Positions 1 through 18,098 of a stretch of 63,621 bases of DNA are shown in pieces. Source of the stretch: Mycobacteriales bacterium (GTDB taxonomy: Bacteria; Actinomycetota; Actinomycetes; Mycobacteriales; SCTD01). Made by a program: the position numbers and the translations under genes. The stretch spans positions 1 through 63,621 of the forward strand of contig DATLGD010000189.1 of the NCBI GenBank assembly GCA_035540755.1. The letters are read 5' to 3'. The first letter of the stretch is position 1; every line of letters begins with the position of its first letter. The notes below the pieces were generated by a model. The model was not told the DNA's origin. It saw only the letters and a list, made by a program, of their open reading frames with translations, and made no database searches.

Positions 1-6
1 GTGGCA

Positions 7-88
7 TTATGCCGACGTCCGGGTTATGCCGAGGTCGAGGCGAGAGCTGCTGCGGTGCAGGGGCTTCGCTCTCGTGAGGTCGGCATAA
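7..88. repeat. RIT left terminal inverted repeat (three TTATGCCGA-type half-sites)
   Basis: Half-sites are ttatgccgacgtc (7-19) and ttatgccgaggtc (24-36), plus the inverted gaggtcggcataa (76-88). The 39-bp spacer 37-75 matches the reverse complement of 3301-3339 at 30/39 positions. Confidence 0.8.
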
Positions 89-97
89 TCCGGTGAG

Positions 98-1363
98 GTG
101 ATCGACGCTTGCCCTCTCACATCCGGGAGAGAGGAGAGCGTCGTGGTCAAGGTCCTGAGCTCGTTCGTGCGGGGGCCGCTCGAGCCGTACGTGACGGGGT
201 TCGCCGAGGAGTTGCTGCGGCTGGGCTACACGCGCACGTCGGCGTCGCAGCACCTGTGCTTCATCGCGCATCTGGACCGCTGGATGCTCGCGCAGGGCAT
301 CGAGCTGGAGGGCCTGAGCGGCCCGGTGCTGGCGCGCTACCTCGCCCAGCGGCGGGCAGCTGGCTACGTCGAGTACCGCTCGATGAAGGCGCTGCAGCCG
401 CTGCTGGCGTTCCTGGCACCGGCGGATGTGCTGCCGACCGAGCCGGAGCAGCCACCGACGCCGGTGGAGGAACTGCTGGCCCGCTACCGCAACTACCTGA
501 TCGACGAGCGAGCTCTGACCCCGGGCACGGCACGCTGCTACGTGGACTGCCTGCGGCCGTTCGTCGCGACTCGGCTGCGCAACGACGCACTCGAGCTCGC
601 CGGGATCACCGCCGCCGACGTGACCGAGTTCGTGCTGTCGGCCTGTCCGGGCCGGGCGATCGGGTCGGCGAAGCTGATCGTGTGCGCCTTGCGGTCGCTG
701 CTGCGCTGGCTGCACCTGACCGGGCAGATCCCGACGGCACTGGCACCGGCGGTTCCCTCGGTGGCGGGTCGGCGACTGTCTGGCCTGCCGAAGGCTCTGG
801 AACCTGCTGAGCTACGCCGGCTGCTCGGCGCGTGCGACCGGCGCACCGGCACCGGCCGCCGCGACTACGCGATCTTGCTGCTGCTGGCTCGGCTCGGGCT
901 CCGCGCCGGCGAGGTCGCCCGGCTCGGCCTGGACGAGATCGACTGGCGGCACGGAGAACTCACCGTCGTGGGCAAGGGCAACCGGGGTGAACGGCTACCC
1001 CTGCCGGCCGACGTCGGGACGGCGATCACCGCCTATCTGCGCCGCGGTCGCCCGCCGACCGCGCAGGGACGCAGCGTGTTCGTGCGGGTGCACGCCCCGC
1101 ACCACGTCCTGACGGCGGGCGGGGTAACGCAAGTGGTGTTCGATGCTGCCCAACGCGCCGGGCTGCCCCCGATGCACGCCCACCGGCTGCGGCACACCGC
1201 CGCCACGGCGATGCTGCGCGCCGGCAGCCCGCTGGCCGAGGTCGGGCAGGTGCTGCGGCACCGCTCGCCGCTGTCCACCGCGATCTACGCCAAGGTCGAC
1301 TGGGACGCGCTGACCGTGCTGGCCCGGCCCTGGCCGGTGCAGGCGACGGGCGGTGTGTCATGA
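98..1363 (+). CDS. Tyrosine recombinase/integrase, first gene of RIT trio
   Basis: 421-aa ORF. The C-terminal catalytic region reads HRLRHTAATAML...VLRHRSPLSTAIYAKV (R/H-x-x-R/Y pattern of phage-integrase family). GTG start is preceded by GGTGAGG. Confidence 0.9.
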   Translation: MIDACPLTSGREESVVVKVLSSFVRGPLEPYVTGFAEELLRLGYTRTSASQHLCFIAHLDRWMLAQGIELEGLSGPVLARYLAQRRAAGYVEYRSMKALQPLLAFLAPADVLPTEPEQPPTPVEELLARYRNYLIDERALTPGTARCYVDCLRPFVATRLRNDALELAGITAADVTEFVLSACPGRAIGSAKLIVCALRSLLRWLHLTGQIPTALAPAVPSVAGRRLSGLPKALEPAELRRLLGACDRRTGTGRRDYAILLLLARLGLRAGEVARLGLDEIDWRHGELTVVGKGNRGERLPLPADVGTAITAYLRRGRPPTAQGRSVFVRVHAPHHVLTAGGVTQVVFDAAQRAGLPPMHAHRLRHTAATAMLRAGSPLAEVGQVLRHRSPLSTAIYAKVDWDALTVLARPWPVQATGGVS

Positions 1364-2301
1364 CCCGCCCGCTACGGGAGGCGGTGAACGACTACCTGGC
1401 GCTGCGTCGCGCGCTGGGCTACCGGATGGCCCGCCCGGAGAAGCTGCTTGATCAGTTCCTGGACCACCTCGACAGCGTCGGCCAGTCGCGGATCACCGTC
1501 ACGACCGCGCTGAGCTGGGCGCGGCTGCCGGCCAACGCCACGCCGAGCTGGTGGGGCTACCGGCTGTCGGCAGTGCGTGGCTTCGCCATCTACCTGCACG
1601 CGATCGACCCGGCGCACGAGGTGCCAGCGGCCGACCTGCTGCCGCAGCGGTCGTTGCGCGCCAGCCCGTACGTGTACTCCGACGCCGACATCACCGCGCT
1701 GATCGCGGCCTGCACCACGCTGCGTGATCCGCTGCGACAGGCCACCTTCGCGACGCTGATCGGGCTGCTCGCGGTCACCGGCCTGCGGGTCGGGGAAGCG
1801 ATCGCCTTCAACCGCGACGACGTCGACCTGCGCGCGAGGCGGCTCACCGTGCGGCACGGCAAGTTCGACAAGGCCCGCCAGCTCGCCTTGCACCCGAGCA
1901 CGGTCCAGGCGCTGCGGGACTACCAGCGGCTGCGTGACCGGCTTGCTCCCCCGACCGGGACAAGGGCCTGGTTCGTCTCGCTGGCCGGCACCAGGCTGCT
2001 CTACTGCAACGTTCAGCACACCTTCCACCGGCTGGTGAAGCTCGCTGGGCTCACGCCCCGGTCCGCGTCGTGCCGTCCGCGCCTCCACGACCTGCGCCAC
2101 AGCTTTGCCGTTCACGCGATGCTCGACGCCTACGCCACCGGCCAGGACGGGCAGTTCCGGCTGACCCTGCTGTCGACCTGGCTGGGGCACGTCCACCCGG
2201 GCAGCACCTACTGGTACCTGTCGGCCTCGCCGGAGCTGATGGCGATCGCCGGGCAGCGGCTCGAGGCCCACCTCACCGGCCAGTCAGCAGGCCAGCCGTG
2301 A
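1360..2301 (+). CDS. Tyrosine recombinase/integrase, second gene of RIT trio
   Basis: 313-aa ORF with an ATGA overlap onto the upstream stop. Motifs LHDLRHSFAVHAML and WLGHVHPGSTYWYL are present. Confidence 0.9.
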   Translation: MTRPLREAVNDYLALRRALGYRMARPEKLLDQFLDHLDSVGQSRITVTTALSWARLPANATPSWWGYRLSAVRGFAIYLHAIDPAHEVPAADLLPQRSLRASPYVYSDADITALIAACTTLRDPLRQATFATLIGLLAVTGLRVGEAIAFNRDDVDLRARRLTVRHGKFDKARQLALHPSTVQALRDYQRLRDRLAPPTGTRAWFVSLAGTRLLYCNVQHTFHRLVKLAGLTPRSASCRPRLHDLRHSFAVHAMLDAYATGQDGQFRLTLLSTWLGHVHPGSTYWYLSASPELMAIAGQRLEAHLTGQSAGQP

Positions 2302-3287
2302 GTGCCCTGGCTCCGACGCTGCAGGCGTTCTTCACCGACCGGCTCATCGCCCAGCGCCGCGCCAGCGGGCACACCATCGCCGCCTACCGCGACACCCTGC
2401 GGCTGCTGCTGAACTACGCAGCCGTCGACACGGGCCGGGCGCCAGCGCAGCTGGACCTGGCCGACCTCGACGCTCCGCTCATCGCCGGCTTCCTGGACCA
2501 CCTGGAACGCGAGCGCGGCAACAGTGTCCGCACCCGCAACGCCCGGCTGGCGGCGATCCACTCGCTGTTCCGGTTCGCCGCGCTGGCCCATCCCGAACAC
2601 GCCGACAGCATCGCCCGGGTGCTGGCCATCCCACCCAAACGTTTCGACCGGACGCTGATCACCTACCTCAGCGAGCCTGAGGTCGACGCGCTGCTCGGCG
2701 CCTGCGACCAGCACAGCTGGACCGGCCGGCGTGATCACGCGCTGCTGCTGCTCGCCGTCCAGACCGGGCTGCGGATCTCCGAGCTCACCGGACTGACCCC
2801 CGCCGACCTGCACCTGGGCGCCGGCGCGCACGTCTCCTGCCGCGGCAAGGGCCGCAAGCAGCGGATCACCCCGCTCAGCACGTCCACCGTGGCAGTCCTG
2901 AAGGCGTGGTTGGCCGAGCAACCCGCCGCGCCCGGCGCACCGCTGTTCGCCACCCGCAGCGGCACCCCGCTGAGCCGCGACGCGGTCGAGCATCGCATCA
3001 GGCACTACGCCACCAACGCCGCAGTCCTCTGCCCGTCGCTGCAGGGCAAGACCGTCACCGCGCACGTCCTGCGGCACACCACAGCCATGCGGCTCCTGCA
3101 CGCCGGCGTCGACACCAGCGTCATCGCGCTCTGGCTCGGACACGTCAGCGTCGACACCACCCAGATCTACCTGCACGCCGACCTCGACCTCAAGGAGAAG
3201 GCGCTCGACAGAACCCGCCCACCGCACGGTCAAGCAGGCCGATACCAGCCACCCGACAGCCTGCTCAGCTGGCTCGAGAGCCTCTGA
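2298..3287 (+). CDS. Tyrosine recombinase/integrase, third gene of RIT trio
   Basis: Motifs HVLRHTTAMRLL and WLGHVSVDTTQIYLHAD are present. GTG 2298 was chosen because it forms a GTGA overlap with the upstream stop. The ORF track extends to 2070, but that stretch overlaps the second recombinase. Confidence 0.88.
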   Translation: MSALAPTLQAFFTDRLIAQRRASGHTIAAYRDTLRLLLNYAAVDTGRAPAQLDLADLDAPLIAGFLDHLERERGNSVRTRNARLAAIHSLFRFAALAHPEHADSIARVLAIPPKRFDRTLITYLSEPEVDALLGACDQHSWTGRRDHALLLLAVQTGLRISELTGLTPADLHLGAGAHVSCRGKGRKQRITPLSTSTVAVLKAWLAEQPAAPGAPLFATRSGTPLSRDAVEHRIRHYATNAAVLCPSLQGKTVTAHVLRHTTAMRLLHAGVDTSVIALWLGHVSVDTTQIYLHADLDLKEKALDRTRPPHGQAGRYQPPDSLLSWLESL

Positions 3288-3369
3288 TTATGCCGACCTC
3301 ACCAACGCCGAACCACTGCACCGCAGCAGGTCCCGCCTCGACGTCGGCATAATCCAGAGGTCGGCATAA
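3288..3369. repeat. RIT right terminal inverted repeat
   Basis: Half-sites are ttatgccgacctc (3288-3300), gacgtcggcataa (3340-3352) and gaggtcggcataa (3357-3369). This is the mirror image of 7-88 and begins immediately after the third recombinase's stop codon (3285-3287). Confidence 0.8.
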
Positions 3370-3375
3370 TGCACC

Positions 3376-3395
3376 TTATGCCGACGTCGGCATAA
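3376..3395. repeat. 20-bp perfect palindrome made of two head-to-head RIT half-sites, just outside the right IR
   Basis: The sequence ttatgccgac|gtcggcataa is read directly. It sits 6 bp beyond the right IR and 1 bp before the truncated IS256 reading frame. Confidence 0.8.
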
Positions 3396-3396
3396 C

Positions 3397-3875
3397 GTGC
3401 ACAAGATCGGCAACGTACTCAACGCGCTGCCCAAGTCGGCCCAGCCGGGCGCCAAGGCGGCGCTGGCCGAGATCTACAACGCCGAGGACCGCGAGCACGC
3501 GCTGGCCGCCGTCAAGGCCTTCGCCGCCGACTACGGCGCCAAGTGGCCCAAGGCCGTCGCGAAGATCACCGACGATGTCGACGTGCTGCTGGCGTTCTCC
3601 GACTACCCGGCCGAGCACTGGATCCATCTGCGCACCACGAACCCGATCGAGTCGACCTTCGCCACCGTCCGGCTGCGCCAGCGCGTCACCAAGGGACCAG
3701 GCTCGCGCGCCGCCGGCGTCGCGATGGCGTTCAAGCTCACGAATCCGCCCCGGGCCGCTGGCGGGCCGTCAACGCCCCGCACCTGGTCGCCCTCGTCCGA
3801 GCCGGCGCCCGCTTCGACAAGGGCAAGCTCGTTGAACGACCCGACACCTCAGAAGGTGAGGAGCAAGCCGCCTGA
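3397..3875 (+). pseudogene. IS256-family (Mutator-type) transposase remnant, 5'-truncated and frameshifted
   Basis: It begins abruptly at VHKIGNVLNALPKSAQPGAK... and continues ...HLRTTNPIESTFATVRLRQRVTKG, which is the C-terminal half of IS256-type transposases. The frame changes near 3739-3741: AFKL in one frame, then ESAPGRWRAVNAPHLVALVRAGARFDKGKL in the 3543..3875 frame. No N-terminal half is present in the window. Confidence 0.8.
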
Positions 3876-3946
3876 CACGCCGATCCACAGGTCTTGACAA
3901 TTGCTCGCGCCGCACTCGACGCATCAGGGCGAGCAACGTCACCGGC

Positions 3947-4987
3947 TTAGGCAGTGATGACCGCGTAAAGCCGCTGATCGACCGATGCCGACGATGCGAC
4001 TTCCAGGAGCACCTGCAATACGGCGCCGGGATCGTCTGCCCACTCACCTTCGGGCAGTAAAGCCGTCTGTGCATTCCAAGCTCGCAAGAGCGGCTCGGGC
4101 CGGGAAGCGTCCCGTAGCGCTTGCACGAGGTCGGGGCTTAGACCTACGAGCATCTTTTCATCTGTCTCTTGCAGCCGGGTCGCGGTGGCTTCACGGTCTA
4201 AGCCGACGGCCGCCCCCAAGGCCTCCAGACCTGAGATTGTAAGGTGTGCATCGAACGTTTGCGGGCTTCCTCGGTGCAGCGCGTGTTCCCACGCCTCTGC
4301 GTCGTTCGTCGCGGCAAGGAAGTACACCACGCCGCGCCCCATCGACTCCTCAGGTCCGGGAGTCATAGTCCGCGCCCGCGAGGCGGCAGGCCCGAAGATG
4401 CCGGCGTAGAAAAGCCAGTCCTGCCTGTCGGTTTGCGACTCATACAGGACAGCCCACGACTGTGGCCCAGACAACTTCCGCCTCAGATCGTCAGCCAGGA
4501 CGTTGCCAGCGTCCGCTCGAGCGAGCACACTAGGCCAACCTCGGTGGTCCCGGCGCACGACAATCTGAGAGCCATCCGTCGCGAATTTGTTTTCCGCCAA
4601 CTCGACCCCGTCGAGGAAGCGCACGCCGACGGCCTTCGAGAAGTCGTTCCCCGACACGTCGTACTTGCCGGACAGGGTGACCGCGAAGGTTCCCGAGATC
4701 GTGCAGTTCGTCATGCCTTGGAGGCCTACAACCCAGGGAAGCCGCATGCCCGTCAAGACACAATCGCGCAGCACACACGAGCGGAGATTGGCTCTGCCGA
4801 CTGTCCAGTCCTGGAGCCTGCAGCGGTCGAAGAGGGTGCGCCTTGTAAACCAACCGGGGACCACCCACAGCTCGCTATACCGAAGTGGGCCAACCGTTGC
4901 CCCGCCCAGGCGGCCGCCCCCCCGAATTTCAAGGTGCTCACCCGCGGTTCCAGACAGATCCGGCAAGGTCCGTATTGATTCATTCAC
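3947..4987 (-). CDS. Hypothetical 346-aa protein, GTGA-coupled downstream of the inverted orphan Rhs toxin tip (putative immunity protein)
   Basis: This is a long ORF in a lower-GC stretch. Its GTG start (4987) overlaps the toxin stop (4984-4986). I recognise no family. The N-terminal half has irregular repeats (RCRLQDWTVGRANLRSCVLRDCVLTGMRL) and the C-terminal ~130 aa is acidic. Confidence 0.6.
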   Translation of the reverse strand: MNESIRTLPDLSGTAGEHLEIRGGGRLGGATVGPLRYSELWVVPGWFTRRTLFDRCRLQDWTVGRANLRSCVLRDCVLTGMRLPWVVGLQGMTNCTISGTFAVTLSGKYDVSGNDFSKAVGVRFLDGVELAENKFATDGSQIVVRRDHRGWPSVLARADAGNVLADDLRRKLSGPQSWAVLYESQTDRQDWLFYAGIFGPAASRARTMTPGPEESMGRGVVYFLAATNDAEAWEHALHRGSPQTFDAHLTISGLEALGAAVGLDREATATRLQETDEKMLVGLSPDLVQALRDASRPEPLLRAWNAQTALLPEGEWADDPGAVLQVLLEVASSASVDQRLYAVITA

Positions 4988-5700
4988 CGCACGATGCCGC
5001 TGTAGGTCACGAGCTTGCCGCCTGGGAACTTCAACTCGACGCCAATACGACCAAAGCCACCGTATCCGCCACGTCCGAAACGAAAATCCGGGGAGAACCG
5101 TCGCGGAGCTCCCTTGGGACCAGAAGCCTTACCGTACCGAACCCCCCTTCCGAGCAGGTCCGCGGTTCGCCTATGCATCTCCAAGCCGTAGGCGAAGGAG
5201 CGCACCCGCTGCTTATCCGTTATGCGCTGGTAGCCCTCGCGCTTCAGGTCGCGAAGAGCGCGCCGAGCTGCTGCCCGGACAGCTTGCCTCGCAAGATACT
5301 GCGCCGCACGCTGTCCAAGCCACCGAGCCCCGATGTTGGCGCCCATGACGAGCAGGGGAACGAAGGTCGCCTCGCCGTCCAGGTCAAGCAGGCCGACGGG
5401 GTTGCCTGCCACGTAGTCGTAGTCGTTGGCACTGCCGCCTTCGACGGGGTCAACGGACAGGAAGCGGCCTAAGGCAGGCACGTACTGCCGGGCGCCCATT
5501 TCGATGGTCGCGATGGTCGAGGCGTGCTCGTACGGCCTCTGGTGCTGGCCGAGCCAGCCGTAGTCGAGCTGCCCGGCGCTGGTGTCCGGAACACGGTCGT
5601 CCGCGGCCGGGGTGCCGGCCCGTCCGATGGCTCCGGTGGCCACATCGATGGGCTGCCCGTACGGGTCATAAGTGGCGTTCCGCGCGGGATCAGAGTTCGC
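4984..5700 (-). CDS. Orphan Rhs C-terminal module (end of Rhs core plus alternative toxin tip), inverted relative to the main rhs gene
   Basis: The frame opens directly after TAG (5701-5703). It encodes [11 protein letters not shown]...[66 protein letters not shown], followed by a unique ~130-aa tail containing EMH...SPDFRF...GVELKF. The only internal start candidate is GTG at 5643. Confidence 0.75.
   Translation of the reverse strand, partial: ANSDPARNATYDPYGQPIDVATGAIGRAGTPAADDRVPDTSAGQLDYGWLGQHQRPYEHASTIATIEMGARQYVPALGRFLSVDPVEGGSANDYDYVAGNPVGLLDLDGEATFVPLLVMGANIGARWLGQRAAQYLARQAVRAAARRALRDLKREGYQRITDKQRVRSFAYGLEMHRRTADLLGRGVRYGKASGPKGAPRRFSPDFRFGRGGYGGFGRIGVELKFPGGKLVTYSGIVR
5413..5676 (-). 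repeat. Inverted copy of the 3' end of the Rhs core (partner: 11968-12231)
   Basis: Hand alignment of the reverse complement against 11968-12231 gives 264 bp with no indels and 39 mismatches. The longest perfect run is 33 bp (5539-5571 vs 12073-12105). Confidence 0.8.
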
Positions 5701-5875
5701 CTAGCGGTGACCCGGTCGTTGATCCCGGTACTGCGACGCCCGACTCGTCTGGACCTGTCCATGTTCGCCACTTGCGTTGTGGCGACTTTCTGCATTTGTG
5801 CCTACGTGATCACGCTACGTGTGCTTGTGTCCTGTCCGCTGCGGCTGCTCGGGGCGGTCGAGATGGGGGTTCCTG
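5701..5875 (+). promoter_or_regulatory. Intergenic leader upstream of rhs (presumed promoter region), containing a 10-bp palindrome cgtgatcacg
   Basis: This non-coding stretch is less GC-rich than its surroundings and lies between the inverted orphan and the rhs start. The palindrome is at 5805-5814. I could not pin down a convincing -35/-10 pair. Confidence 0.3.
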
Positions 5876-8800
5876 GTGCGTCGTCGTCGCCTGTCGTCGT
5901 CTGTCTGGCTGGTCGGGATGACCGGCGGCGCGGTGCTGCTCGGAGGCCTGGTCGTGCCTGCGTCGGCGGCTGAGCCCGCGCAGGCAACACCGGTTTCCGC
6001 GGCGCCTACGGGATCGCCGTTACCGTCCGGGCCTCGGCCTGCGCCGGGTTCTGATGGTGGCGTGTCGGTGCCGCCTGAGGCGGTGTGGGGTGAGTTCACG
6101 AACTTGCCGAACAACCTGCCGGTCGCGCCGCCTGTGCCGCCGCAGGCCCGTGTGCCGCAGGGTTATGAGCCGGGTAAGTCGCGCCTGGTGGCGCGTGACC
6201 TGAACTCGGACACCTACGCCAACCCGGACGGCTCGCACGCGGTCCGCATCGATGCCTCGCCGCGGAACGTCGAGGTCTCACCGGGACGGTTCGAGCCGGC
6301 GGACCTGTCGTTGGTGCAGGCTGCTGAGGCGGACGTGCCGGAGGCTGGCCGGTCCGGAGAGGCGCTCAAGCCAGGTCTGCGCCCGGTGCGGCATGCGCTG
6401 GCTCCGGTGTTCAGCGCCGACGGGACCGGGGGGTTGGTGGCACTGCGACGGGCCGAGGTCAGCGTCCGGATGGAGGCGGCAGAGGGTGGCCCTCGGAAGG
6501 CTCCGACGAAGGTGCCCGGGACGCCGGGTGTGCGATTCGAGGACGCGTCGGAGGCCTCGGACGTGCAGTACGAGATGACGGCCGGGTCGGTCAAGGAGAC
6601 GATCTTCGTTCAGGACCGGGCGGCGGCCGGGGACGGCGTGTGGTCGTTCTGGGTCGATGTGCGTAACGGCTCGCTGCGGTTGGATGCCGACGGCGGGGTG
6701 TCGGCGGTGAACGCCTCGGGTGAGACGGCGATGCGGATGCCGATCCCCTACATCGAGGACTCCTCGTCGGTGCCGGGTGTCCGCGGCCCGGCGGACGTCA
6801 ACGGCCGCTACACGATCAGCCGGGTCAGCGGTCGCTGGCTGGTGCAGGTGCATGTCGCGACCGGGTGGCTGGACGCCCCGCAGCGCGTGTATCCGGTGCT
6901 GGTCGACCCGACCTGGGTGGCTCCGGGCTACGACAAGGTCGTGGCGTACAAGAGCGACGGCACGTCCAACGCCGACGGACAGATCCGGATCGGTTCCCCG
7001 GACGGGCACAGCTGGCGCACGGTGATGCACTGGAAGTACGAGCAGTACCTGCCGGCGAAGGTGAACATCGCCAGCGCAGAGGTCGACTATCAGTACCTGG
7101 CCGGTGACACCACCTCCCGCACGGCGTACCTTGCCCGGGCCGGCTCGTGGTCGTACTCGCACTACCTGTACGGGCTGGGCTCCGGTCCGTTGGGTGCGGG
7201 GACCTTGAAGCTGACCGACTCGCGGATCACCAACGAGTTCCGGACGCTGTTCAACAACAACGAGCACAACGCCGGCTACATGGTGTCCGGCACGGAGTCA
7301 TCCACTACCTATACCTACAAGCGGATCGATGCCTCGCTGTGGCTGGGGCTGAACTACACCGCGAATTCCGCGACGCTGCACGAGCCCGCCAACGGCGCGA
7401 CCGGGCAGCGGGTGGAGCCGCTGCTGCGGGCCTCGGCGACCGACCCGGACGGCGACGATCAGATCTACTACTACTTCCGGGTGTCGGAGAACCCGAACCC
7501 GGACGTGGCGCCGGTGGTGAACCAGTTCGGCACCTACGGCGGGGGGTCGCTGCGGATTCCGCCCCGGGTGCTCAAGGGCGGCACGACCTACTACTGGAAG
7601 GTCTACACCCGGGACGCCTGCCATCTGGTGGAGAACCCGTGCGGCTACGGGCGGACCTTCCACAACGAGTCGCCGGTGCGATCGTTCACCACGAACCAGC
7701 CGCCGGATGCGCTCAGCGGGCAGAACACGACTCCGTCGGGGACGTTGGCGACGTTGACCCGACGTTGAGCGTGCCGGCGGCCACCGACCCGAACACCCCG
7801 GCCGATCAGCTGCGGTACTTCTTCAACGTCGCGACCGGCGGGGACGGCACGGCCGGCACGGTGATCTCCTCGGGTTGGCTGCCGGCCGGGGTGAGGACGT
7901 GGACGGTTCCGTCGGGGTATCTGCGGGACGGGACGGCCTACACCTGGACGGCGTGGGCCGGGGACGGCATCGATCGGGACCAGGGCTGGTGGCACAACAA
8001 GATCACGATCGACTTGCGGACCGGTGACCCGAAGAGCTCCCCGACCGACAGCGCCGGTCCGGTGACGGCGAACCTGGCCAACGGCAACGCGATCGTGCGG
8101 GCGGAGTCCCCGACGGCGCAGTTCGCCAAGAACAGCGCTGGGTTCGCCTTCACCTACAACTCCCAGGCCGCCGTCGCCCCGCGCGGGCTGACCGCGACCT
8201 ACTACGAGGACGCCGACCGCGACGCCGTGCTCGATCCGGAGGAGGCCGGACGGCAGCTGATGCAGCGGATCGAGCCGCAGATCAACGGCAACTGGCAGAT
8301 GGGCTCGCCGCACGCCGGTGTGGTTCCGGCCGACTTCTTCTTCGCCAACTGGCGCGGTCGGCTGATCGCCCCGGCCTCGGGCACCTACAACTTCGGAGTG
8401 ACCCGGGACGACAGCATCACCGTCACCGTCAACGGCCAGGAGGCCGCCAAGGCGGCGTGCTGCTCCGACCAGGTGATCTGGGGGCCGCCGATCTCGCTGA
8501 CCGCCGGGCAGTCGGTGCCGATCAGCGCTGACTACATCGAGTACCACCTGTCCGCCTACGCCCAGGTGTGGGTCAAGGGCCCCGGCGTTGCTGAGCGGCT
8601 GCTGCCGGCGGAGTGGCTCTCGCCGCAGGAGCCGTCGGCGCTGCCGGCCGGCTGGACGCTGAGCACCGACATCGACGGCACCTCGCCGTACACCAGGGCG
8701 GTCAGCAGCGACCTGTCGGTGACGTTGCACGACGACAGCGGCGCCACGCATGTGTGGACGCGCGATCCTGCCGCGCCCGGCACCTTCAAGCCGCCGTCCG

Positions 8801-11800
8801 GTGAGACCGGAACCCTGACCGCCAACAACACCTCCGGCTCACCCGAGCAAGGCCAGCTGACGCTGCTGGAGGACGACGGCGCCCGCACGGTGTTCGACGG
8901 CACCGGCAAGCTGCTGTCGTACACACCGATGGACGTCTCGGGCAAGCCCGCCCCGCTGGCCTACGGCTACAACGGGCCACGGCTGACTGAGATCACCGAC
9001 AGCCTGTCCGGGTTGAAGGTCCGGTTGTCCTACGGCACCGCCGAGGGCCCCGAGGACTGCTATGGCAGCACGGCCGTGCCCAGCGGTGCGGTGGGTGACG
9101 CCCCGGGCGGCAAGCTGTGCCGGATCGTCTTCCCCGACGGCACGCAGAGCACCCTGTGGTACTCCCACGCCACCGACGGCCGGCTGGTCACCATCTTGGA
9201 CCCCGGCGGTGAGCGCACCTCGTTCGGTTATGACAGCAACGGCCGACTCAACGCCGTCCGCGACCCGCTGGCCTCCGATGCGATGGCCGCCGGCATCGTG
9301 CCGGAAAGCGGCGCGAGCGCGACGCTGCTCAACTACGACAGCGGCGGCACCGGCGGGCTCGGTCCCCGCCTGTCGACGGTGACGCTGCCCGAGACCAAGA
9401 ACGCCGCCGGTGTCCTGCAGGCCCGCGGCAAGCGGACCTACACCTACCCGGTCGGGTTCGGGCCTGGGATCACCGGCGCGACCGAGGTCCGCATCGACGG
9501 GCTGAACCCGGCGCCACCGCAGGGCTGGGCCCGGCGGGTGGAGTTCAACGATCGGCTGCAGGCGCTCAAGGACACCGACGCCGCCTCGGTCAGCAGCACG
9601 ACCGCCTACCGCACCGACGACCTGCTGGAGAAGGTCACCGACGGCGACGGCCGGGTCTCCACGACCGTCCACGACGCCGCCAGCCGCCCGGTCGCCCAGT
9701 ACGGCCCGGCGCCGGCGGCGTGCTTCACCGGCCTGACGCCGGTGGCCAACCCGCAGACCGCCGCGGGCTGCGGCACCCTGGTCCCCGAGACCCGCACCGG
9801 CTACGACGAGAACCTCGCCTCGCTGCACGTCGCCTGGTTCGGCAACAAGACCTTCAGCCGCGCCCCGGTCCACCAAAGCCTGGGACTGCCCAGCACCGAC
9901 GGCAGCTTCAACAAGGACTGGGGCACCCTCTCGCCGGTTCCTGGCATCGTGCCGGAGGACAACTTCTCACTGCGGGCCACCGGCCTGATCCGGCTCGACC
10001 AGGCCGGCACCTACACCTTCACCCTGGACGCCGACGACCGGGCCCGGCTGTGGATCGACAACAAGCTCGTCGTCGACCACTGGCCCGACGGCGCCTGGAA
10101 CGGCGCGAAGTCCGCCACCTTCCACAACGCGGTCGCCGGCGCGCTGCTGCCGATCCGGATCGAGCACAACGACACCGGCGGCGGCGCCCGACTCCGGCTG
10201 TCCTGGACACCACCCGGGCAGAGCAGCGCCACCGTCCCGGCATCGGCCTTGTCGCCGGGCTACAACCTGATCACCAGCACCACCACCAGCGACGCCAGTC
10301 CGGACCGGCCCGGCGCGGTCAGCACGCAGCGCACCGTCACCGACTACGGCAGCAAGCCGTGGGAGGGCCTGGCGCAGTCCACCACCGTCGATCCCGGCGG
10401 GCTCAACCTGACCACCCAGGTCCGCTACGACAGCGAACACCGACGCACCCACCGGGCACTGCCCGGCGGCGACGTCGGCGACGCCACCGCCAGATACACC
10501 GACGCCTACTACGGCAACACCGCCACACTGGCCAACCCCTGTCAGGCCGGTAGCCCCGTGCTCAACCAGGCCGGGCGGCTCCTGACCAACACCGCCCCGC
10601 AGTCCTCCAACGGGCAGCAACTCGTCCGCGAGAACGTGTACGACCTCACCGGCCGCGTCCTCGCTTCCCGGACCCGCACCGCGACGCTGCCCAGCACCGA
10701 GCCGTGGACCTGCACCAGCTACGACAACCGCGGCCGGACTCTCACGACCGCCTACGCCAAGGGGTCAGCCGAAGAGCGCGTCGTCACCTCCAATTACGCC
10801 GTCGGCGGGAACCCGCTGGTCACCTCGGTCAGCGACAGGCACGGGACGGTCACCACCCGCGTCGACCTGCTCGGCCGGGCCATCTCCTACACCGACGCGC
10901 ACGGCGTCACGACCACAACCGACTACGACCAGGCTGGCCGGGTCACCAGAACCGAGACCGCGCACAGCGGCGGCGCCGCGATCTCCACCCAATCCTTCGA
11001 CTACGACACCGCCGGACGCCTGGCCGCACACAAGCTCAACGAAGCGGCCGTGGCTGTCCCGTCCTACGACCCGGCCGGGCAGATGTCCGGCGTCAGCTAC
11101 CCCTCCGGCACCGGCAACGGCGGCAACGGAACCGGCGTCACCCTGCAACGCGACCCGACCGGCCGCCTACAGACGCTGACCTGGAACCTGGCCGGTGGCA
11201 CCCTCACCGACACCGTCAGCCGCTCCCAAGCCGGCAACGTCCTGACCGACACCGTCACCTCCACCATCAACGGTGCGGCGGTCCCGATGCCCGCCAGCTA
11301 CCGCTACGACGCAGCCGGCCGGCTCACCTCCGCCGACGTGCACCGACACCGACTCACCTACGCCTTCGCCGCCGCCGGCGGCTGCGGCGCGAACCCCGCC
11401 GCAGGCAAGAACACCAACCGCACCAGCCTGATCGACCAGCCCCTGGACACCGCCGGCACCGCGACCGGACCAGCGATGACCACCACCTACTGCTACGACA
11501 AGGCCGACCGGCTCACCGCCGTCACCGGCGGCGCCACCAGCGCCGGCGGCCCAGACCTCAGCCTGCCCAACACCCTGGACTACGACAGCCACGGCAACAC
11601 CAGCAAGCTCGGCGAGCAGACCCTGGGCTACGACAGCGTCAACCGGCACCTGAGCACCACCGTCACCGGCGCCGACCCCGGCACCGTCACCTACACCCGT
11701 GACGCCACCGACCGGATCATCGCCCGCAGCAGCACCATCGCCAGCGACCCCGGCACCCGTCGCTACGCCTACACCGGCAGCGGCGACACCGCCGACATCA

Positions 11801-12645
11801 CCCTCACCGCCGACGCCACCACCGTCATCGAGCAGCACATCAGCCTGCCCGGCGGCGTCCTCTACACCCACCGACCCACCAGCACCGACCGCACCTGGGC
11901 CTACCCCAATATCCACGGCGACCTCATCGCCACCGCCGGACCGTCAGGCACACTCGCCAGCCAGATCGCCACTTATGACCCCTACGGCCAGCCCATCGAC
12001 CCGGTCACCGGAGCCATCGGCAAGGTCGGCACACCCGCCGCCGACGACCACGTCCCGGACACCAGCAACGGACAGCTCGACTACGGCTGGCTCGGCCAGC
12101 ACCAGCGCCCCTACGAGCACGCCTCAACGATCGCCACCGTCGAGATGGGCGCCCGGCAGTACGTCCCAGCGCTCGGGCGCTTCCTGTCCGTCGACCCTGT
12201 GGAGGGCGGCAGCGCAAACGACTACGACTACACCGATGGCGACCCCGTCAACGCACTTGATCTTGACGGCACGTTCTCCGTCCGGGGTCATTTCAAGAAG
12301 CACTGGAAGAAGTACGCGACCGTGGCGTCGTTCGCCGTCGGCGGCGGAGTTGTCGGTGGTGCAGTCTTCGCGTACCGCGCCTACCGGATCGTTCAAGCAG
12401 CCAGGGCCACACAGGGGATGGCTGGAGGTATAAGAGCAACACGAGCCACGTCTTGGCTCGCAGGGAGGATGTGGACAGGCGTGGGCTCAAGGTCGACTCC
12501 CGTGGGGCGAATTAGTAGCGACGGCCTCCGCCAGTACAGAACGCCGAAGTTCAAGCCCAAGCAAGGCAAGGTTCAGAGCAACTTCGAGTCGCGGTCTTCC
12601 CCCAAGGGAAGATGGCTCAACAACTACCACGTGGACATCCGCTGA
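5876..12645 (+). CDS. Rhs/YD-repeat polymorphic toxin with signal peptide and two PA14 domains; reading frame interrupted once near 7758 (frameshift or sequencing error)
   Basis: - N-terminus: [34 protein letters not shown] (Sec-type signal, AxA site).
- PA14-like segments: TATYYEDAD...[30 protein letters not shown] and [11 protein letters not shown]...[34 protein letters not shown].
- Many YD repeats, for example [37 protein letters not shown] and [10 protein letters not shown].
- Core end: [42 protein letters not shown], followed by a ~135-aa unique tip.
- The ORF track splits the gene into 5819..7768 and 7147..12645. The frames join if one base is added in 7755-7761 (CCC run at 7758-7760). 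Confidence 0.85.
11962..12078 (+). repeat. 117-bp segment of the rhs core, perfectly duplicated at 12933-13049 (direct repeat)
   Basis: The sequence cagatcgccacttatgacccc...aacggacagctc is identical base for base in both places. Identity then falls to roughly 80% through about 13205. Confidence 0.9.
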
Positions 12646-12884
12646 TGGATGAGCCGGCCATGTTCACGGGTCGCGTTGGCAGAGTCCGCCGCGGCCCACA
12701 CAGTGAGATGTATGTGCAGGTGGAGCAAGACGAGACGAAGTACGGCTGGCACATTTGGCTCACGGCGAACCACCCTCGGCTGGGGCCGTCGGACGGGTGG
12801 GACATCTGGGCAGACACATGGGACCAAGTGCTTGAGTGGATAGATCACGAGAATCTCGATGTCGAGTGGCTGTCGAGGGACTAG
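12645..12884 (+). CDS. Putative immunity protein for the main Rhs toxin tip (79 aa, acidic, Trp-rich)
   Basis: ATG 12645 shares its A with the rhs TGA stop (12643-12645), a TGATG coupling. The sequence is [12 protein letters not shown]...GWHIWLTANHP...WDIWADTWDQVLEWIDHENLDVEWLSRD. An alternative in-frame ATG lies at 12612, inside rhs. No family was recognised. Confidence 0.65.
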   Translation: MDEPAMFTGRVGRVRRGPHSEMYVQVEQDETKYGWHIWLTANHPRLGPSDGWDIWADTWDQVLEWIDHENLDVEWLSRD

Positions 12885-13559
12885 TCGCCGAGCTTTCAGG
12901 GACTCCTCCGATCGCCTTGTCTTCTCAGACGGCAGATCGCCACTTATGACCCCTACGGCCAGCCCATCGACCCGGTCACCGGAGCCATCGGCAAGGTCGG
13001 CACACCCGCCGCCGACGACCACGTCCCGGACACCAGCAACGGACAGCTCTACTACGGCTGGCTCGGCCAGCACCAACGGCCCTATGAGCACGTCTCGTCG
13101 ATCGCGACGATCGAGATGGGCGCTCGGCAATACGTGGCGTCTCTTGGGCGATTCCTGAGCACCGATCCGATCGAGGGGGGCAGCGCAAACGAATACGACT
13201 ATGTCAATGCTGACCCCGGCAACGACCTCGATCTGGACGGCCGTGCGCCTCAGTGCAAGAACGGGACTATGTACGTCAACCCCAGCACTGGCTCCGCCCA
13301 TAACAACAGCTGCACCAGGAAGGTGACGAAGTCGAGGCAGGCACACTCAACCCGCATGTCTGGCCGATTCTCGTTCAGCCGAGCGTGCCTGTACGGCGCG
13401 ACTCTCGGCGTAGCCGGTGAGGCTGCCACGGGGAATACTGGAGGGCGGGGGAGACTGCTCAAGAAGGCGAAGCGGTTGCGCTTCGGAGTAGGTGGCTGCA
13501 TGGCCGCCGGCGTCATCGAGCCCGGCATCAACGCTGTCAGAAGGACGCCTCGGCCATGA
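12885..13559 (+). CDS. Orphan Rhs C-terminal module without a start codon (core end plus Gly/Ala-rich toxin tip)
   Basis: The frame opens right after the TAG of the immunity gene. It encodes [103 protein letters not shown], then a ~105-aa tip. There is no ATG/GTG/TTG in frame before ATG 13116. Confidence 0.75.
12933..13049 (+). repeat. Direct-repeat partner of 11962-12078 at the head of the downstream orphan module
   Basis: See 11962-12078. The first mismatch is at 13050 (t versus g at 12079). Confidence 0.9.
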
Positions 13560-13777
13560 CGGGACGGCCCGGAGGCGCCATGAAGAACGTCCGATGGAAC
13601 GTAGAAGTCATCCGGTTCGTCGCAACGATGGTCGCAATCGTCGCGGTCATACATGCCGCAAGGGACGACCCGGCCTTCGATAGCTTGCTGACCAAGGCGC
13701 TGTCCGTCGTGGTGCTCGCACTAATCATATTGTTTCTCTGGGAATGGCTAATCAAGCGGCGCAGAGGGAGTGATTGA
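13556..13777 (+). CDS. Small two-TM membrane protein, putative immunity for the downstream orphan toxin
   Basis: There is an ATGA overlap with the orphan stop (13556-13559). Two hydrophobic spans are visible: [18 protein letters not shown] and [19 protein letters not shown]. Confidence 0.6.
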
Positions 13778-14148
13778 TCGAAAATGCGCTGGAATGGACG
13801 CCCCCTCCCGGGCAAGCGTGTGCATAGGCACACCGTTCGGCCGAGGCCGCCGAGCCACCCATAAGCCCTGCTCTGCCCGCGCTGGGACACTGCCGAGGTT
13901 CCCGTGGGGCACGGTGGACGGCGCGAGCCGGAAGATTCCATCGCAGCGGATGTCCGCCGCCAGCTGTCTGGCGACAAGGCGCCGCCTCGTGGTCGCGTGG
14001 GGGTCAGGAGTTGCCCGCCCCTCGTGGCCCGCTTCGGCCAGCGGGTTGGCGCTACAGCGAGGGACTCCGCAGCGTTGACTGCCGGCGGCGCGAGCGTTCT
14101 CTGCGCCTCGTTCAACGGTGTGCCCAGCCACCGCTTCCGGCCGGACCG

Positions 14149-14337
14149 TCACTGCTGCGGCGGGCCGCCGTTGCGGTAGGCGACCACCATCGACAAGACG
14201 ATCGCCACGAACGCCGCGCTCGCGAGGGCGTCGCGCACGGCGGTGTCCGCCGTCGCCTCCGTCCCGGTCGTGCGGGCGACCCAGCTGACGAGGCCGGTCA
14301 GGACGCCGACGAGCACCGCGAACGGGTAGGTCCACAC
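14149..14337 (-). CDS. Small hypothetical membrane protein (62 aa)
   Basis: There are two hydrophobic segments (PFAVLVGVLTGLVSWVA and AAFVAIVLSMVVAY), and third-codon positions are strongly G/C. No family was recognised. Confidence 0.4.
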   Translation of the reverse strand: MWTYPFAVLVGVLTGLVSWVARTTGTEATADTAVRDALASAAFVAIVLSMVVAYRNGGPPQQ

Positions 14338-14414
14338 GCCGTCCCCCTTCGACGCCCAGGGCGCAGGCCCTGCCGTGCCGTCCGCGCTGTGCCGTCCGGA
14401 TAGGGTCGCAGGCG

Positions 14415-15143
14415 ATGCCCGACCTCCGCCAGAACACCGTGCTCACCGCCGACCGCCGCGACGTCGTGCTGCACACCGCCGACGGGCTCGAGCTCGTCGG
14501 CGAGCTCGCCCTCCCGGTGGACCGGCCGCCCGTGGCGACCCTGCTGTGCCTGCACCCGCTGCCCACACAGGGCGGCTTCATGGACAGCCACCTGCTCAAG
14601 AAGGCGTCCTACCGGCTCCCGGCCCTGGCCGACCTGGCCGTGCTGCGCTTCAACACCCGCGGGACGTCGAGCCCGCGCGGCACGAGCCAGGGCAGCTTCG
14701 GCCACGCGCAGGACGAGAAGCTCGACGTGGCAGCGGCTCTGGACCTGTGCGAGGCCGAGGACCTGCCGGCGATCTGGCTGCTCGGCTGGTCCTTCGGCAC
14801 CGACCTCGCCCTCATGTACGGCTGCGACCCGTCCGTCGTCGGCGCCGTGCTGATCAGCCCACCGCTGCGGTTCTCCCAGCCCGAGCACCTGCAGCAGTGG
14901 GCCGACTCCGGCAAGCCCCTCACCGCGCTGGTGCCCGAGCACGACGACTTCCTGCGGCCGGCCGAGGCGCGGAAGCGCTTCGCCGCGGTGCCGCAGGCCG
15001 ACATCGTCGCCGTGGAGGGCGCCAAGCACCTGTTCGTCGGCTTCACCGAGACGGTGCTCGACGAGGTCGTCCAGCGGGTCGTGCCCGACGCGCACCCGCT
15101 GCCCCGCACCGTTCCCGACTCCCTCGTCCAGGAGACGCCATGA
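14415..15143 (+). CDS. Alpha/beta hydrolase
   Basis: 242 aa with the nucleophile elbow LLGWSFGTDLAL and typical N-terminal ...LCLHPLPTQGG. Confidence 0.75.
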   Translation: MPDLRQNTVLTADRRDVVLHTADGLELVGELALPVDRPPVATLLCLHPLPTQGGFMDSHLLKKASYRLPALADLAVLRFNTRGTSSPRGTSQGSFGHAQDEKLDVAAALDLCEAEDLPAIWLLGWSFGTDLALMYGCDPSVVGAVLISPPLRFSQPEHLQQWADSGKPLTALVPEHDDFLRPAEARKRFAAVPQADIVAVEGAKHLFVGFTETVLDEVVQRVVPDAHPLPRTVPDSLVQETP

Positions 15144-15901
15144 CCTCCTTCGACCTGTCCGGCAGGGCCGCGCTCGTCACCGGTGCCTCCCGTGGCATCG
15201 GCCGGGCGGTGGCGGTCGGGCTTGCCGCCGCGGGCGCCGACGTCGCCGTCTCCGCCCGCAACGAGGACCAGTTGGCCGAGGTGGCGGCCGAGGTAGAGGC
15301 GCTCGGCCGCAAGGCCGTCGTGCTGCCCGCCGACGTCACGGACGCCGAGGCCTGCCGCAGCCTGGCCGCGGACGCTGTGGCTGCGCTCGGCCACGTCGAC
15401 GTGCTCGTCAACAACGCCGGCGGCTCGTCCTACATGGGTCCTTTCACCGAGCTGCGCTTCTCCGGCTGGGAGAAGGTCATGCGGCTCAACGTCGACTCGA
15501 TCGTGCACCTGACCCAGGCGGTCGGCCGGCACATGCTGGAGCGCGGCAGCGGCAGCGTCGTCAACGTCGCCTCCGTGGCCGGGTTGACCGGCACCCCGAC
15601 GCTCGCCCCCTACGGCGCCAGCAAGGCGGCGGTCATCTCCCTCACCAAGTCGCTCGCGCTCGAGTGGGGGCCGCAGGGGGTCCGGGTGAACGCGCTGTGC
15701 CCCGGCTGGACCCGGACCGACCTGAACCGCGACCTGTGGGGCGACGAGGGGCTGGCCCGCATGATGGTCGAGCCGACCGCGCTGAAGCGCTGGGCGGAGG
15801 CGCACGAGATGGTCGGGCCGACCGTGTTCCTCGCCAGCGACGCGTCGTCCTACCTCACCGGGCAGGCGCTGGTCGTCGACGGCGGCCAGACCGCCGGCTG
15901 A
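15140..15901 (+). CDS. SDR-family oxidoreductase
   Basis: Motifs VTGASRGIGRAV, NNAG and YGASKAAV are present. ATGA overlap with the upstream gene. Confidence 0.9.
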   Translation: MTSFDLSGRAALVTGASRGIGRAVAVGLAAAGADVAVSARNEDQLAEVAAEVEALGRKAVVLPADVTDAEACRSLAADAVAALGHVDVLVNNAGGSSYMGPFTELRFSGWEKVMRLNVDSIVHLTQAVGRHMLERGSGSVVNVASVAGLTGTPTLAPYGASKAAVISLTKSLALEWGPQGVRVNALCPGWTRTDLNRDLWGDEGLARMMVEPTALKRWAEAHEMVGPTVFLASDASSYLTGQALVVDGGQTAG

Positions 15902-15919
15902 CGGCCGGGGGCGCGCCGC

Positions 15920-17155
15920 TCAGCCCGGCGGCCGGATGCCGGTCTGGTCCGTCGGCTGCCCCGCTGCGGCAGGGGGCGACCCGGGGAGCGGCTCGAGCTG
16001 GGCGAGGTGCTGCCGGACGTAGCGCACGACCACTGCCACGACGGCCACGACCGGCACCGCCAGGAACGCCCCGGTGATGCCTGCGAGGGTGCCGCCGGCC
16101 GTGACCGCGAGGATGACGACGGCCGGGTGGAGGTCGAGGGTCCGGCCGACGAGGACTGGCTGCAGGACGTTCCCCTCGAGCTGCTGCACGATCAGCACCA
16201 ACGCCACCACGACCAGCGCGCTGGTGACGCCGTTGGTCACCAGGGCCACCAGCGCCGCGAGCGCTCCGGTGACCACGGCGCCGATGATCGGGATGAACGC
16301 GCCGAAGAAGATGAGCACCGCCAGCGGCAGCGCCAGCGGCACGCCGAGGACCGCCAGCCCGATGCCGATGGCGACGGCGTCGACGAACCCGACGGCGGCC
16401 TGGGCCCGGATGAAGCCGGACAGCGTCACCCACGCCCGCTGGCCGACGGCGGACACGTGCGGCGCGGCCCGCGGTCCGACCAGTCCGCCGAGCCACGGCA
16501 GGAACTTCGGTCCGTCCTTGAGGAAGAAGAAGCACAGCACGACCGCCAGCAACCCGGTCAGCAGGAGCGAGCCGGCCGCGACGGCACCGGTGAGGACGCG
16601 GCCGGCGATGTTCTGGGCGTTGGCCTGCAGCGAGCTGATGACGTTGTCGACCGCGTTGCCGATCACGTCCTGGCCCAGGTTCAGCGGCGGCCCGGTGACG
16701 AGCTCCTGCAGGTTGTCGAGGCCCGCCACCACCTGGTCGGCGATCTCCTGCGCCTGGCCGGTCACCTGAGGCGCGAGCACGGCGACCGTCGCGGTCAGCA
16801 GGAGGACGCCGGCCAGCAGGACGGCAGCTGCCGACAGCGCGGGCGGTGCACCGCGGCGGCGCAGGAAGCGCACCGGCGGCCAGAACACCGTCGCGAGCAG
16901 CAGGCCGAGCAGCACCGGCAGGACGATGACCCACAGCCGGCTGAGGACGACGCCCACGAGCAGGACGGCTGCGGAGATGAGCAGCAGGCGCAGCGAGAAG
17001 GTGGCCAGCCGGGCGGTCGCCGTGCCGACGAGCGCCTCACGCGGGTGCGCTGAGGGGGGGAGCCGGCGGTGGGGCTCCGGTGTCGGCGTCACCTGGTCGG
17101 CCTCGACGCGCGTCGGGTCCGCGACAGGCGCGCCGTCGGAGGGGGGAGTGGTCAC
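15920..17155 (-). CDS. AI-2E family (PerM/UPF0118) transporter
   Basis: Multi-TM protein with sequences such as ...FIPIIGAVVTGALAALVALV...QQLEGNVLQPVLVGRTLDLHPAVVILAV. The start is uncertain (GTG 17155 or 17170). The ORF track extends to 17326, but that would overlap the upstream gene. Confidence 0.8.
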   Translation of the reverse strand: MTTPPSDGAPVADPTRVEADQVTPTPEPHRRLPPSAHPREALVGTATARLATFSLRLLLISAAVLLVGVVLSRLWVIVLPVLLGLLLATVFWPPVRFLRRRGAPPALSAAAVLLAGVLLLTATVAVLAPQVTGQAQEIADQVVAGLDNLQELVTGPPLNLGQDVIGNAVDNVISSLQANAQNIAGRVLTGAVAAGSLLLTGLLAVVLCFFFLKDGPKFLPWLGGLVGPRAAPHVSAVGQRAWVTLSGFIRAQAAVGFVDAVAIGIGLAVLGVPLALPLAVLIFFGAFIPIIGAVVTGALAALVALVTNGVTSALVVVALVLIVQQLEGNVLQPVLVGRTLDLHPAVVILAVTAGGTLAGITGAFLAVPVVAVVAVVVRYVRQHLAQLEPLPGSPPAAAGQPTDQTGIRPPG

Positions 17156-17222
17156 CGGGAAATCCTGCACCAGGCCGGCGCCGTGAGGCGCGCTGGTCCG
17201 GTCCCGCGCGGACCCGAACGGG

Positions 17223-18098
17223 TCAGCCCTGCGGCTCGCCCCGACCCGAGCCGCGCTCGAACCGGCGGGTCTGGTCGGCGTCGCCCGGGGGTGCGGCGGA
17301 CGGCGCGGGGGGCGGCATCGCGGCACCCATCGTGCCGACGGCGGCGGCGATGGCGTCGCGCAGCTGGCCGAGCTGCTGCACGAGCGTGTCGCGCTGGCGG
17401 GTCAGCTGCTGCACCTCGCGCGAGACCTCGACGCGGGCCTGGGAGGCCTCCTTCTGCGTCTGCTCGTGCAGCAGGCGCACGTCGGCGCGGGCGGTCTCGA
17501 GCTGCTTGGCGGCGTCGCGCTCGGCGTCGGCGCGCAGGGCCTCGGCGCGGGCCTTGGCCTGCTCCAGCTCGCGCTCGGCTTCGCGGGCGGCGCGCGAGCG
17601 CACCGACTCGGCGTCCTTCTGGGCCTCGAGCCGGGCGGTCTCGGCCTCGCGCTGCGCCGTCTCGACCTCGCGCTCGCGCTTCTCGAGCACCTTGGTGCGC
17701 TCGGCGTTCTCGGCCGCGGCCTGCTCCTTCGCGGCGCCGAGCAGCGCGTCGGCCTCGGCTCGGGCGCTGCCCCGGATGGCCGCGGCCTCCTCCTCGGCCA
17801 GCTCGAGCATCTTGCGCAGCCGCTCGCCGACGAGCGCGGCCGGCTCCGGGCGGCCGGAGGCGCGCCGCTCGGTCTCGGACAGGCGGGCGGTCAGCTCGCC
17901 CACCTGGCGCTCGAGCGCGGCGATGCGACGGCCGTCCTCGGCGTGCCGCTCGTCGGCGTCGTTGAGGGCGACCTCGACCCGGTCGAGGTACTCCTCGACC
18001 TGGCGCGGGTCGTAGCCGCGCAGCACGTGGCGGAAGCCGCTGGGTTGCGCGTCGTCGTCCGTCAGAGGTACGAGGTCGTCCATCGTCTCGCTCGTCAT
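17223..18098 (-). CDS. DivIVA-domain coiled-coil protein
   Basis: The N-terminus reads FRHVLRGYDPRQVEEYLDRV. A long Ala/Glu/Arg coiled-coil and a Pro-rich tail follow. Confidence 0.8.
   Translation of the reverse strand: MTSETMDDLVPLTDDDAQPSGFRHVLRGYDPRQVEEYLDRVEVALNDADERHAEDGRRIAALERQVGELTARLSETERRASGRPEPAALVGERLRKMLELAEEEAAAIRGSARAEADALLGAAKEQAAAENAERTKVLEKREREVETAQREAETARLEAQKDAESVRSRAAREAERELEQAKARAEALRADAERDAAKQLETARADVRLLHEQTQKEASQARVEVSREVQQLTRQRDTLVQQLGQLRDAIAAAVGTMGAAMPPPAPSAAPPGDADQTRRFERGSGRGEPQG

Follow-up and report, generated by a model that had tools for sequence, protein, structure and literature searches.

A probable silent orphan Rhs tip/immunity module, inverted and head-to-head with an rhs gene, in a Mycobacteriales metagenome contig

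The diversification of Rhs and other polymorphic toxins is ascribed to the displacement of tips into direct orphans downstream of the main gene, and re-use of such an orphan deletes the intervening toxin and immunity genes or needs their duplication. In Salmonella Typhimurium LT2, recombination in the common core segment yields a full-length rhs gene with the orphan tip, and the demonstrated activation of the orphan uses 522 bp of homology at 95% identity (PMC3967940). Here, an rhs locus is described from a 63,621-nt stretch of DNA of a Mycobacteriales bacterium (contig DATLGD010000189.1, referred to as the window), in which an extra copy of the Rhs core end lies upstream of the main rhs gene in inverted orientation. 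The locus belongs to the Rhs polymorphic-toxin family with orphan modules, and the inverted upstream orphan is a variant arrangement. The inverted copy is probably the 5' arm of a silent orphan Rhs tip/immunity module that faces the full-length rhs gene head-to-head, an atypical position, and for which inversion is possible but should be very rare.

As in the Rhs orphans of Salmonella Typhimurium LT2 (PMC3967940), a core-end fragment without delivery region is combined with a distinct tip and an immunity gene of its own, a candidate in the present case, beside a full-length rhs gene. The two systems differ in the recombination product, with a deletion or duplication junction in Salmonella, whereas an upstream inverted orphan would lead to an inversion. 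The homology amounts to 307 nt at 83% identity against the longer and more similar segment in Salmonella. Moreover, the Rhs protein of the window is of the signal-peptide type and comes from a Gram-positive-type actinobacterium, while the Salmonella Rhs is linked to a type VI secretion system, and recombinants are known only there.

Three core ends are present at the locus. The inverted copy, arm I, comprises approximately the last 100 codons of the Rhs core (5374 to 5680, minus strand) and its partner, arm M, is the core end of the main rhs gene (11964 to 12270, plus strand). Both were detected with a repeat finder, self-BLASTN and TIGR03696. A third copy, arm D (12933 to 13241, plus strand; repeat finder and TIGR03696), is the direct arm of a classical downstream orphan. 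All three exceed the curated cut-off of 32.5 bits for TIGR03696, the RHS repeat-associated core domain, with scores of 43.1, 48.2 and 41.4 bits, the 48.2 bits being those of arm I. The likeness between the copies stops at the LDLDG motif and is followed by a variable tip, in keeping with an Rhs core domain.

According to the repeat finder, arms I and M are inverted repeats of 307 nt each that are 83% complementary, and self-BLASTN aligns 5413-5680 with 12231-11964 at 85.1% identity (E = 1e-73). A gap-free codon alignment of 11968-12231 with 5413-5676 gives 39 mismatches in 264 nt and no indels, with 26 synonymous and 7 non-synonymous codon differences, and the longest stretch without a mismatch begins at 12073 and measures 33 nt. 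These are the values of the original prediction, which had reported a 264-bp inverted copy of the core end with 39 mismatches, no indels and a 33-bp run. The synonymous divergence (dS) between arm M and arm I is 0.63 and the non-synonymous divergence (dN) 0.09. At the protein level, arm I is 88% identical to arm M and at most 72-79% identical to any other species. The 33-nt run encodes a stretch of 11 residues, at which other actinobacterial genera differ from the window by only 2-9 nt. Its use as a recombination site was rejected, since the codons concerned are conserved at 73-94% identity in other actinobacterial genera as well. Coding constraint accounts for this conservation, therefore the perfection of the run needs no special cause.

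Arm D is 87% identical to arm M overall, with a perfect stretch of 117 nt (11962-12078 against 12933-13049), beyond which the identity falls to about 75-80%. Over the first 111 nt, dS between the two arms is 0. Such a mosaic points to an exchange in the recent past or to the place where the last displaced tip was joined, and the absence of synonymous change in the tract shows that exchange at the rhs locus does leave a visible trace. Both orphans begin at one position of the core, 11962 for arm D and 11964 for arm I, and this common start suggests a cassette-like boundary.

On the minus strand, the reading frame of arm I opens after TAG 5703-5701. No ATG, GTG or TTG lies ahead of the homology and the first start is GTG 5643, within the arm; inspection of the open reading frames (ORFs) thus agrees with the earlier claim that the inverted copy has no start codon ahead of the homology. 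The frame runs through tipI (4984 to 5373, minus strand), an alternative putative toxin tip of 129 aa plus stop that directly follows the LLDLDG core-end motif and is unrelated past this motif to tipM, the present tip of the main gene. The stop at 4984-4986 overlaps the GTG start (GTGA) of immI (3947 to 4987, minus strand), a candidate immunity gene of 346 aa assigned by position only. The other part of the claim, namely that the copy continues in frame into a different tip with its own coupled downstream gene, was borne out by this 129-aa tip and its GTGA overlap with the 346-aa ORF. Both 5680-3947 and 12933-13777 have the make-up of an orphan module, with a core-end fragment, a tip and a candidate immunity gene, and without delivery region or own start.

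TipI has few relatives. Two matches were obtained among 5.8 billion protein clusters (its own 219-aa product and one 171-aa relative) and three among 1.84 billion representative proteins, all of them short (171, 299 and 166 aa). In neither of these two collections was an Rhs body joined to tipI, and a full-length Rhs protein with this tip is absent from about 15 billion proteins. An exact 44-mer of tipI had 0 matches in the JGI metagenome contigs, and neither tipI nor immI has a match in Pfam or NCBIfam. An AlphaFold2 model of tipI, with one close homologue only, reached a predicted local distance difference test score (pLDDT) of 44. The protein P0010 carries a tip that is 54% identical to tipI on a different Rhs core lineage, which shows tipI to be a genuine Rhs C-terminal domain of the exchangeable kind. 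The tipI/immI pair has a single close relative, on a Logan contig (L002, SRR21413005), in which the pairing and the overlap are kept and the partner is 47% identical to immI at the amino acid level from the first residues. At positions 1-626 of this contig, the arm carries an in-frame stop (LD*GW) while the tip and the downstream gene are still open, so that this copy is an orphan as well. The comparison of tipI with the tip of this relative (dN 0.32, dS saturated) indicates that tipI was under purifying selection in the past. The GC content is 63-65% in tipI and 61-65% in the tip/immunity regions, against 70-72% in the core.

Based on these data, the module consists of the arm (5680-5374), the 129-aa tip and the translationally coupled 346-aa immunity candidate. 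It adjoins a transposase gene of the IS256 family, into which a recombinase-in-trio (RIT) element is inserted, and most likely it works like other Rhs orphans. TipI would not be made alone because no start codon or export region lies ahead of the arm. Through the module, the genome would retain a spare toxin along with an immunity gene, the toxin and immunity functions as well as the silence being what we infer from this organization. Since the module is inverted, the sole route to expression by homologous recombination would be an inversion of approximately 5681-11963 and not the usual deletion. Such an inversion would be in frame and lose nothing, as an occasional evolutionary event rather than a programmed switch. 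By analogy with Mycobacterium smegmatis, and given 307 nt at 83% identity, it should occur at roughly 1e-8 to 1e-9 per generation.

The orientation of the module is unusual. Orphans are usually placed downstream and in direct orientation, although this is not strictly defining, and 5680-3947 lies upstream and inverted. When genomes were scanned with the 101-aa core end, 78 other actinobacterial loci were obtained, each with up to 10 kb of flank on either side. In 13 of the 78, a total of 19 extra core-end copies was found, 18 in direct orientation and one inverted. The lone inverted copy belongs to a second full-length rhs gene and not to an orphan. Inverted orphans are therefore absent from the 78 other loci and from the 18 orphan copies, and the architecture is not conserved as it should be for a switch. 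That an upstream inverted orphan is unusual, as had been proposed from the DNA alone, agrees with the direct orientation of all 18 orphan copies elsewhere.

The direct orphan arrays of other Actinomycetota (L008, L009, L012, L022, L049 and L058) resemble the present locus in their core-end family and in their short arms with spacers of tip/immunity size. Their arms measure 260-1050 nt and are mostly 87-97% identical to the main gene, with varying 5' boundaries; in L008, one arm boundary also lies at the start of the YDPYGQ segment. The difference is that all 18 copies in these arrays are direct and downstream of the main gene, whereas one orphan is upstream and inverted in the window. L008, a Salinibacterium metagenome-assembled genome (MAG), has five direct core-end copies within 8 kb (4315-12302), with arm identities of 77-97%. 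The locus with the inverted copy (L033, Actinosynnema sp. CA-248983) has two full-length rhs genes, at 4457-10675 on the plus strand and 12612-18992 on the minus strand, the former encoding 2072 aa and the latter, with the inverted copy, 2126 aa. They are convergent, tail to tail, with 2.8 kb between the core ends. If these core ends recombined, the short spacer would be inverted and each gene would receive the tip of the other.

The main rhs gene starts beyond a divergent intergenic region (5681 to 5875), the presumed site of the rhs promoter. A sigma-70-like promoter scan of 3800-6100 gave no match in this region and no rhs-like sequence was found in 5681-5875. The 5' part of rhs (5819 to 7768, plus strand; ORF list) encodes a signal-peptide-like N-terminus and a lineage-specific region up to a premature stop. 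The N-terminus is signal-peptide-like by eye only (RRRR, a hydrophobic stretch, ASA/AEP), and the public gene call begins at 6068. The 566-aa truncated product (P0009) had no record on look-up. For the N-terminal 616 aa, no relatives were found in genome contigs or metagenome contigs, and only the sequence itself was retrieved among the 5.8 billion clusters. The frame is interrupted at 7757 to 7761 (plus strand), with CCC in the window against CCCC in L004, a sister contig that stems from another sample. This 1-nt deletion splits rhs in the window and in the public ENA contig L003, neither of which has an uninterrupted full-length frame, while in L004 an additional C keeps the frame open over at least 1230 aa. 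Either the toxin is inactivated by a polymorphism in the population, or the assembly is in error at this position.

The second frame of the rhs body (7744 to 11963, plus strand) encodes two PA14 domains and a YD-repeat shell. PA14 is matched in two stretches (PF07691, 8.5e-33), and RHS_repeat (PF05593, 2e-17) and TIGR01643 (5.6e-11) are matched in 7744-12645, which identifies a YD/RHS shell. The original prediction had placed promoter, signal peptide, PA14 domains and YD shell between the two copies. The PA14 domains and YD repeats are indeed there, whereas the signal peptide is recognized by eye only and no promoter was detected. The gene ends in tipM (12271 to 12645, plus strand; 124 aa), the relatives of which are all short proteins, one being named an RHS core-domain protein. 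Its candidate immunity gene immM (12645 to 12884, plus strand; 79 aa) has an ATG that overlaps the rhs stop (TGATG). The direct orphan consists of arm D, a third putative toxin tip, tipD (13242 to 13559, plus strand), and the candidate immunity gene immD (13556 to 13777, plus strand; 73 aa), which is also called in L085 and L086. The ORFs downstream of tipI and tipM overlap the tip stops, and the candidate immunity products have no family matches. A hydrophobic, helix-like segment of about 20-25 residues follows directly after LDLDG in tipM (12271-12400) and tipI (5373-5290, minus strand), before the presumed toxin domain. The relatives of these tips P0005, P0008, P0010 and P0011 start in a like manner after LDLDG.

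How the inverted module arose has to be considered separately. Either orientation of 5681-11963 leaves at least one orphan upstream and inverted, therefore recombination between the arms alone cannot derive this layout from an all-direct array, and at least one other rearrangement is required. We infer that the origin was not mediated by the arms. The neighbourhood of the module contains two mobile elements. A RIT element of 3.37 kb (4 to 3372, plus strand), identified by profile matches and repeats, has three consecutive tyrosine recombinase genes and is bounded by 87-nt inverted repeats (4-90 and 3286-3372; 85% identity). It splits the IS256-family (Mutator) transposase gene, the halves of which flank it. 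The C-terminal fragment (3397 to 3897, plus strand; PF00872, 9.9e-15, profile positions 256-352 of 379) lies 50 nt from the end of immI and the N-terminal fragment beyond the start of the window, about 570 nt further in L003. Terminal repeats of the IS256-like element were not found, nor was a second copy of the insertion sequence (IS) within the window.

One origin, compatible with the orphan reading and proposed here tentatively, is that the module is a former downstream orphan and that a mobile-element-associated inversion flipped the block of promoter, rhs, tipM and tipD (approximately 5681-14300). Flipping this block back restores a canonical direct array of rhs, M, D and I, followed by IS256, and the event would account for the cassette boundary common to arm I and arm D as well as for the IS256/RIT remains nearby. 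The module adjoins the IS256-family gene split by the RIT element, and both tip regions have a like lower GC content. However, no repeats, IS ends or recombinase sites are present at the two required breakpoints, the window has no second IS copy, and the collections searched hold no relatives that show the ancestral order.

Another origin that is compatible with the orphan reading, although it seems rather unlikely, and that the original prediction gave as its alternative, is a second, divergent full-length rhs gene of which the body was deleted and the 3' remnant retained. Arm I is of the same core lineage as the main gene, given its 88% amino acid identity against at most 72-79% in other species, and oppositely oriented full-length rhs pairs do exist in Actinomycetota, as in L033. 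That pair is convergent and not divergent, however. In addition, the 5' boundary of arm I (approximately 11964) lies within 2-4 nt of that of the direct orphan (11962), a coincidence that the endpoint of a random deletion within some 6 kb of body would hardly produce, and 5681-5818 holds no rhs-like remnant.

The preferred reading of a silent orphan also has to be weighed against a working reversible switch, as put forward in the original prediction. In such a switch, a RecA-dependent crossover would invert 5681-11963 often enough for selection to act, exchanging tipM and tipI back and forth with three immunity genes kept. In silico, the geometry is exact. A reciprocal crossover simulated in the 33-bp run results in an open frame of 1850 codons, in which the YD body is followed by a hybrid arm and tipI and which ends at 4987, directly before the coupled 346-aa gene, with the upstream frameshift carried along. 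TipM becomes a 233-codon orphan behind the former 5' part of arm I and no gene is lost. The inverted repeats thus give in-frame products in both orientations, and the prediction that one crossover grafts the scaffold onto the alternative tip and orphans the present one without any loss is reproduced in the simulation. Each tip would keep its coupled candidate immunity gene, tipI and immI are intact and were historically under purifying selection, the orientation is unique among the loci surveyed, and in Salmonella, recombinants of a main rhs gene with an orphan can be selected (PMC3967940).

Nevertheless, a working switch is very unlikely. The repeats are neither near-identical (83%, dS 0.63) nor short identical sites for a recombinase, and the arms are not homogenised, while the direct orphan has its 117-nt identical tract. 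In M. smegmatis, recombination occurs at 2.4e-6 with 100% identity against 6.5e-9 with 85% identity, which is approximately 370-fold lower (PMC5290159), so that a rate of about 1e-8 or lower is expected here. The repeats look too diverged for a working switch, and one crossover is possible in principle. Furthermore, all assemblies that span the left junction have a single orientation, the databases searched contain no chimeric protein, the architecture does not recur in the 78 other loci and the scaffold is frameshifted in the window contig. With this single orientation, the missing chimera, the diverged arms and the frameshift, the claim of an operating reversible switch is unsupported. No paper describing inversion-based tip switching in Rhs, contact-dependent inhibition or other polymorphic toxins was found. 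A Dickeya paper was set aside as a precedent, since its inversions concern rRNA operons. The RIT recombinases were likewise rejected as acting on the Rhs arms: no RIT-repeat-like sites occur in 3373-14400 beyond the element's own end and the arm flanks have no inverted 10-mers in common. Equally improbable is the general form of the idea, a conservative tip switch in which a rare inversion moves the block of promoter and scaffold between two outward-facing tip/immunity modules.

The contig of the window comes from a MEGAHIT k141 metagenome assembly (ENA ERZ27256763, k141_192172). The right half of the locus is also present in L006, a MAG with the label Egibacteraceae, and the window is taken here as part of the chromosome of an Egibacteraceae soil bacterium (Actinomycetota). 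The left junction is spanned in one orientation by the window contig, by L004 from another sample and by L005 from another assembler. Further sister contigs, retrieved via immM, immD and a 242-aa flank gene, have a like arrangement or are broken inside the arms. An assembly artefact, in which the assembler wrongly joined two sequences at the repeat and so produced the head-to-head junction, can practically be dismissed: although the window is itself such a k141 contig and several sister contigs break inside the arms, the passage from arm I over the intergenic region to the rhs N-terminus is spanned identically in the independent assemblies L004 and L005, and the arms have at most 33 identical nt in common, far below k=141. 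Compared with L003, the window differs over a match of 15.6 kb at six positions (5696, 11532, 15339, 15442, 15448 and 15484), and at 5696 the Logan contig L005 agrees with L003 and not with the window.

Some points weigh against the reading of the inverted copy as a silent orphan with very rare inversion. The comparison covers consensus assemblies only, in which a minority inverted subpopulation would be invisible. The Logan contigs with k=31 break at the common 33-nt run (at 5568, the end of L001, and at approximately 13046, the start of L088) and carry no junction information. The collections searched contain no relatives of this rhs gene with which the orientation could be compared. The tipI/immI pair is intact, with dN well below the saturated dS, which fits occasional use. 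Finally, the arrangement stands alone, and how it came about has no positive explanation.

The rest of the window is an ordinary actinobacterial chromosome with genes for the GlgE pathway, MoaA, CoxL/CoxE, methylmalonyl-CoA mutase and ETF. Among these housekeeping genes, a 716-aa ORF with a DUF222 domain is located at 26571-28718 (minus strand). The DUF222 family is usually tied to HNH endonuclease-type mobile genes of actinobacteria. ARAGORN reports a 91-nt tRNA-Pro (GGG) at 20020-20110, within a reading frame with a high GC content at the third codon position, where Rfam finds no tRNA; it is probably a false positive.

An inverted orphan alters the product of recombination, as it allows a reversible inversion by which every immunity gene is kept. 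If a switch were true, a lineage could change the toxin that it delivers without losing immunity to the former one, by a route distinct from deletion or duplication. Such loss-free toxin switching would link Rhs loci to the classical systems of inversion-based variation. What the locus documents is that the arrangement can arise, that it is rare, and that in this case nothing in the sequence marks it as an active switch. The locus is therefore best regarded as an atypical orphan rather than a new mechanism.

Among the classical systems, the sap locus of Campylobacter fetus reportedly undergoes a RecA-dependent inversion of a promoter segment between oppositely oriented homologous gene segments, according to work of Dworkin and Blaser from 1996-1997. 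As in sap, one promoter would serve alternative coding ends. The sap cassettes, however, are said by the same authors to be complete genes with a conserved, essentially identical 5' homology and frequent, demonstrated switching, whereas in the window the homologous part is the 3' core end, which has diverged, an inversion would turn over the entire gene body of 6 kb, and the case is known from sequence alone. The G segment of Mu and the C segment of P1, the R64 shufflon and type I hsdS genes rely on a dedicated invertase or tyrosine recombinase that acts on short identical sites. The likeness with these systems is that an inversion would swap a C-terminal specificity part together with a linked gene onto a constant N-terminus. 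They differ from the present locus in that no such sites flank the Rhs arms, and the recombinases nearby belong to a self-contained RIT element.

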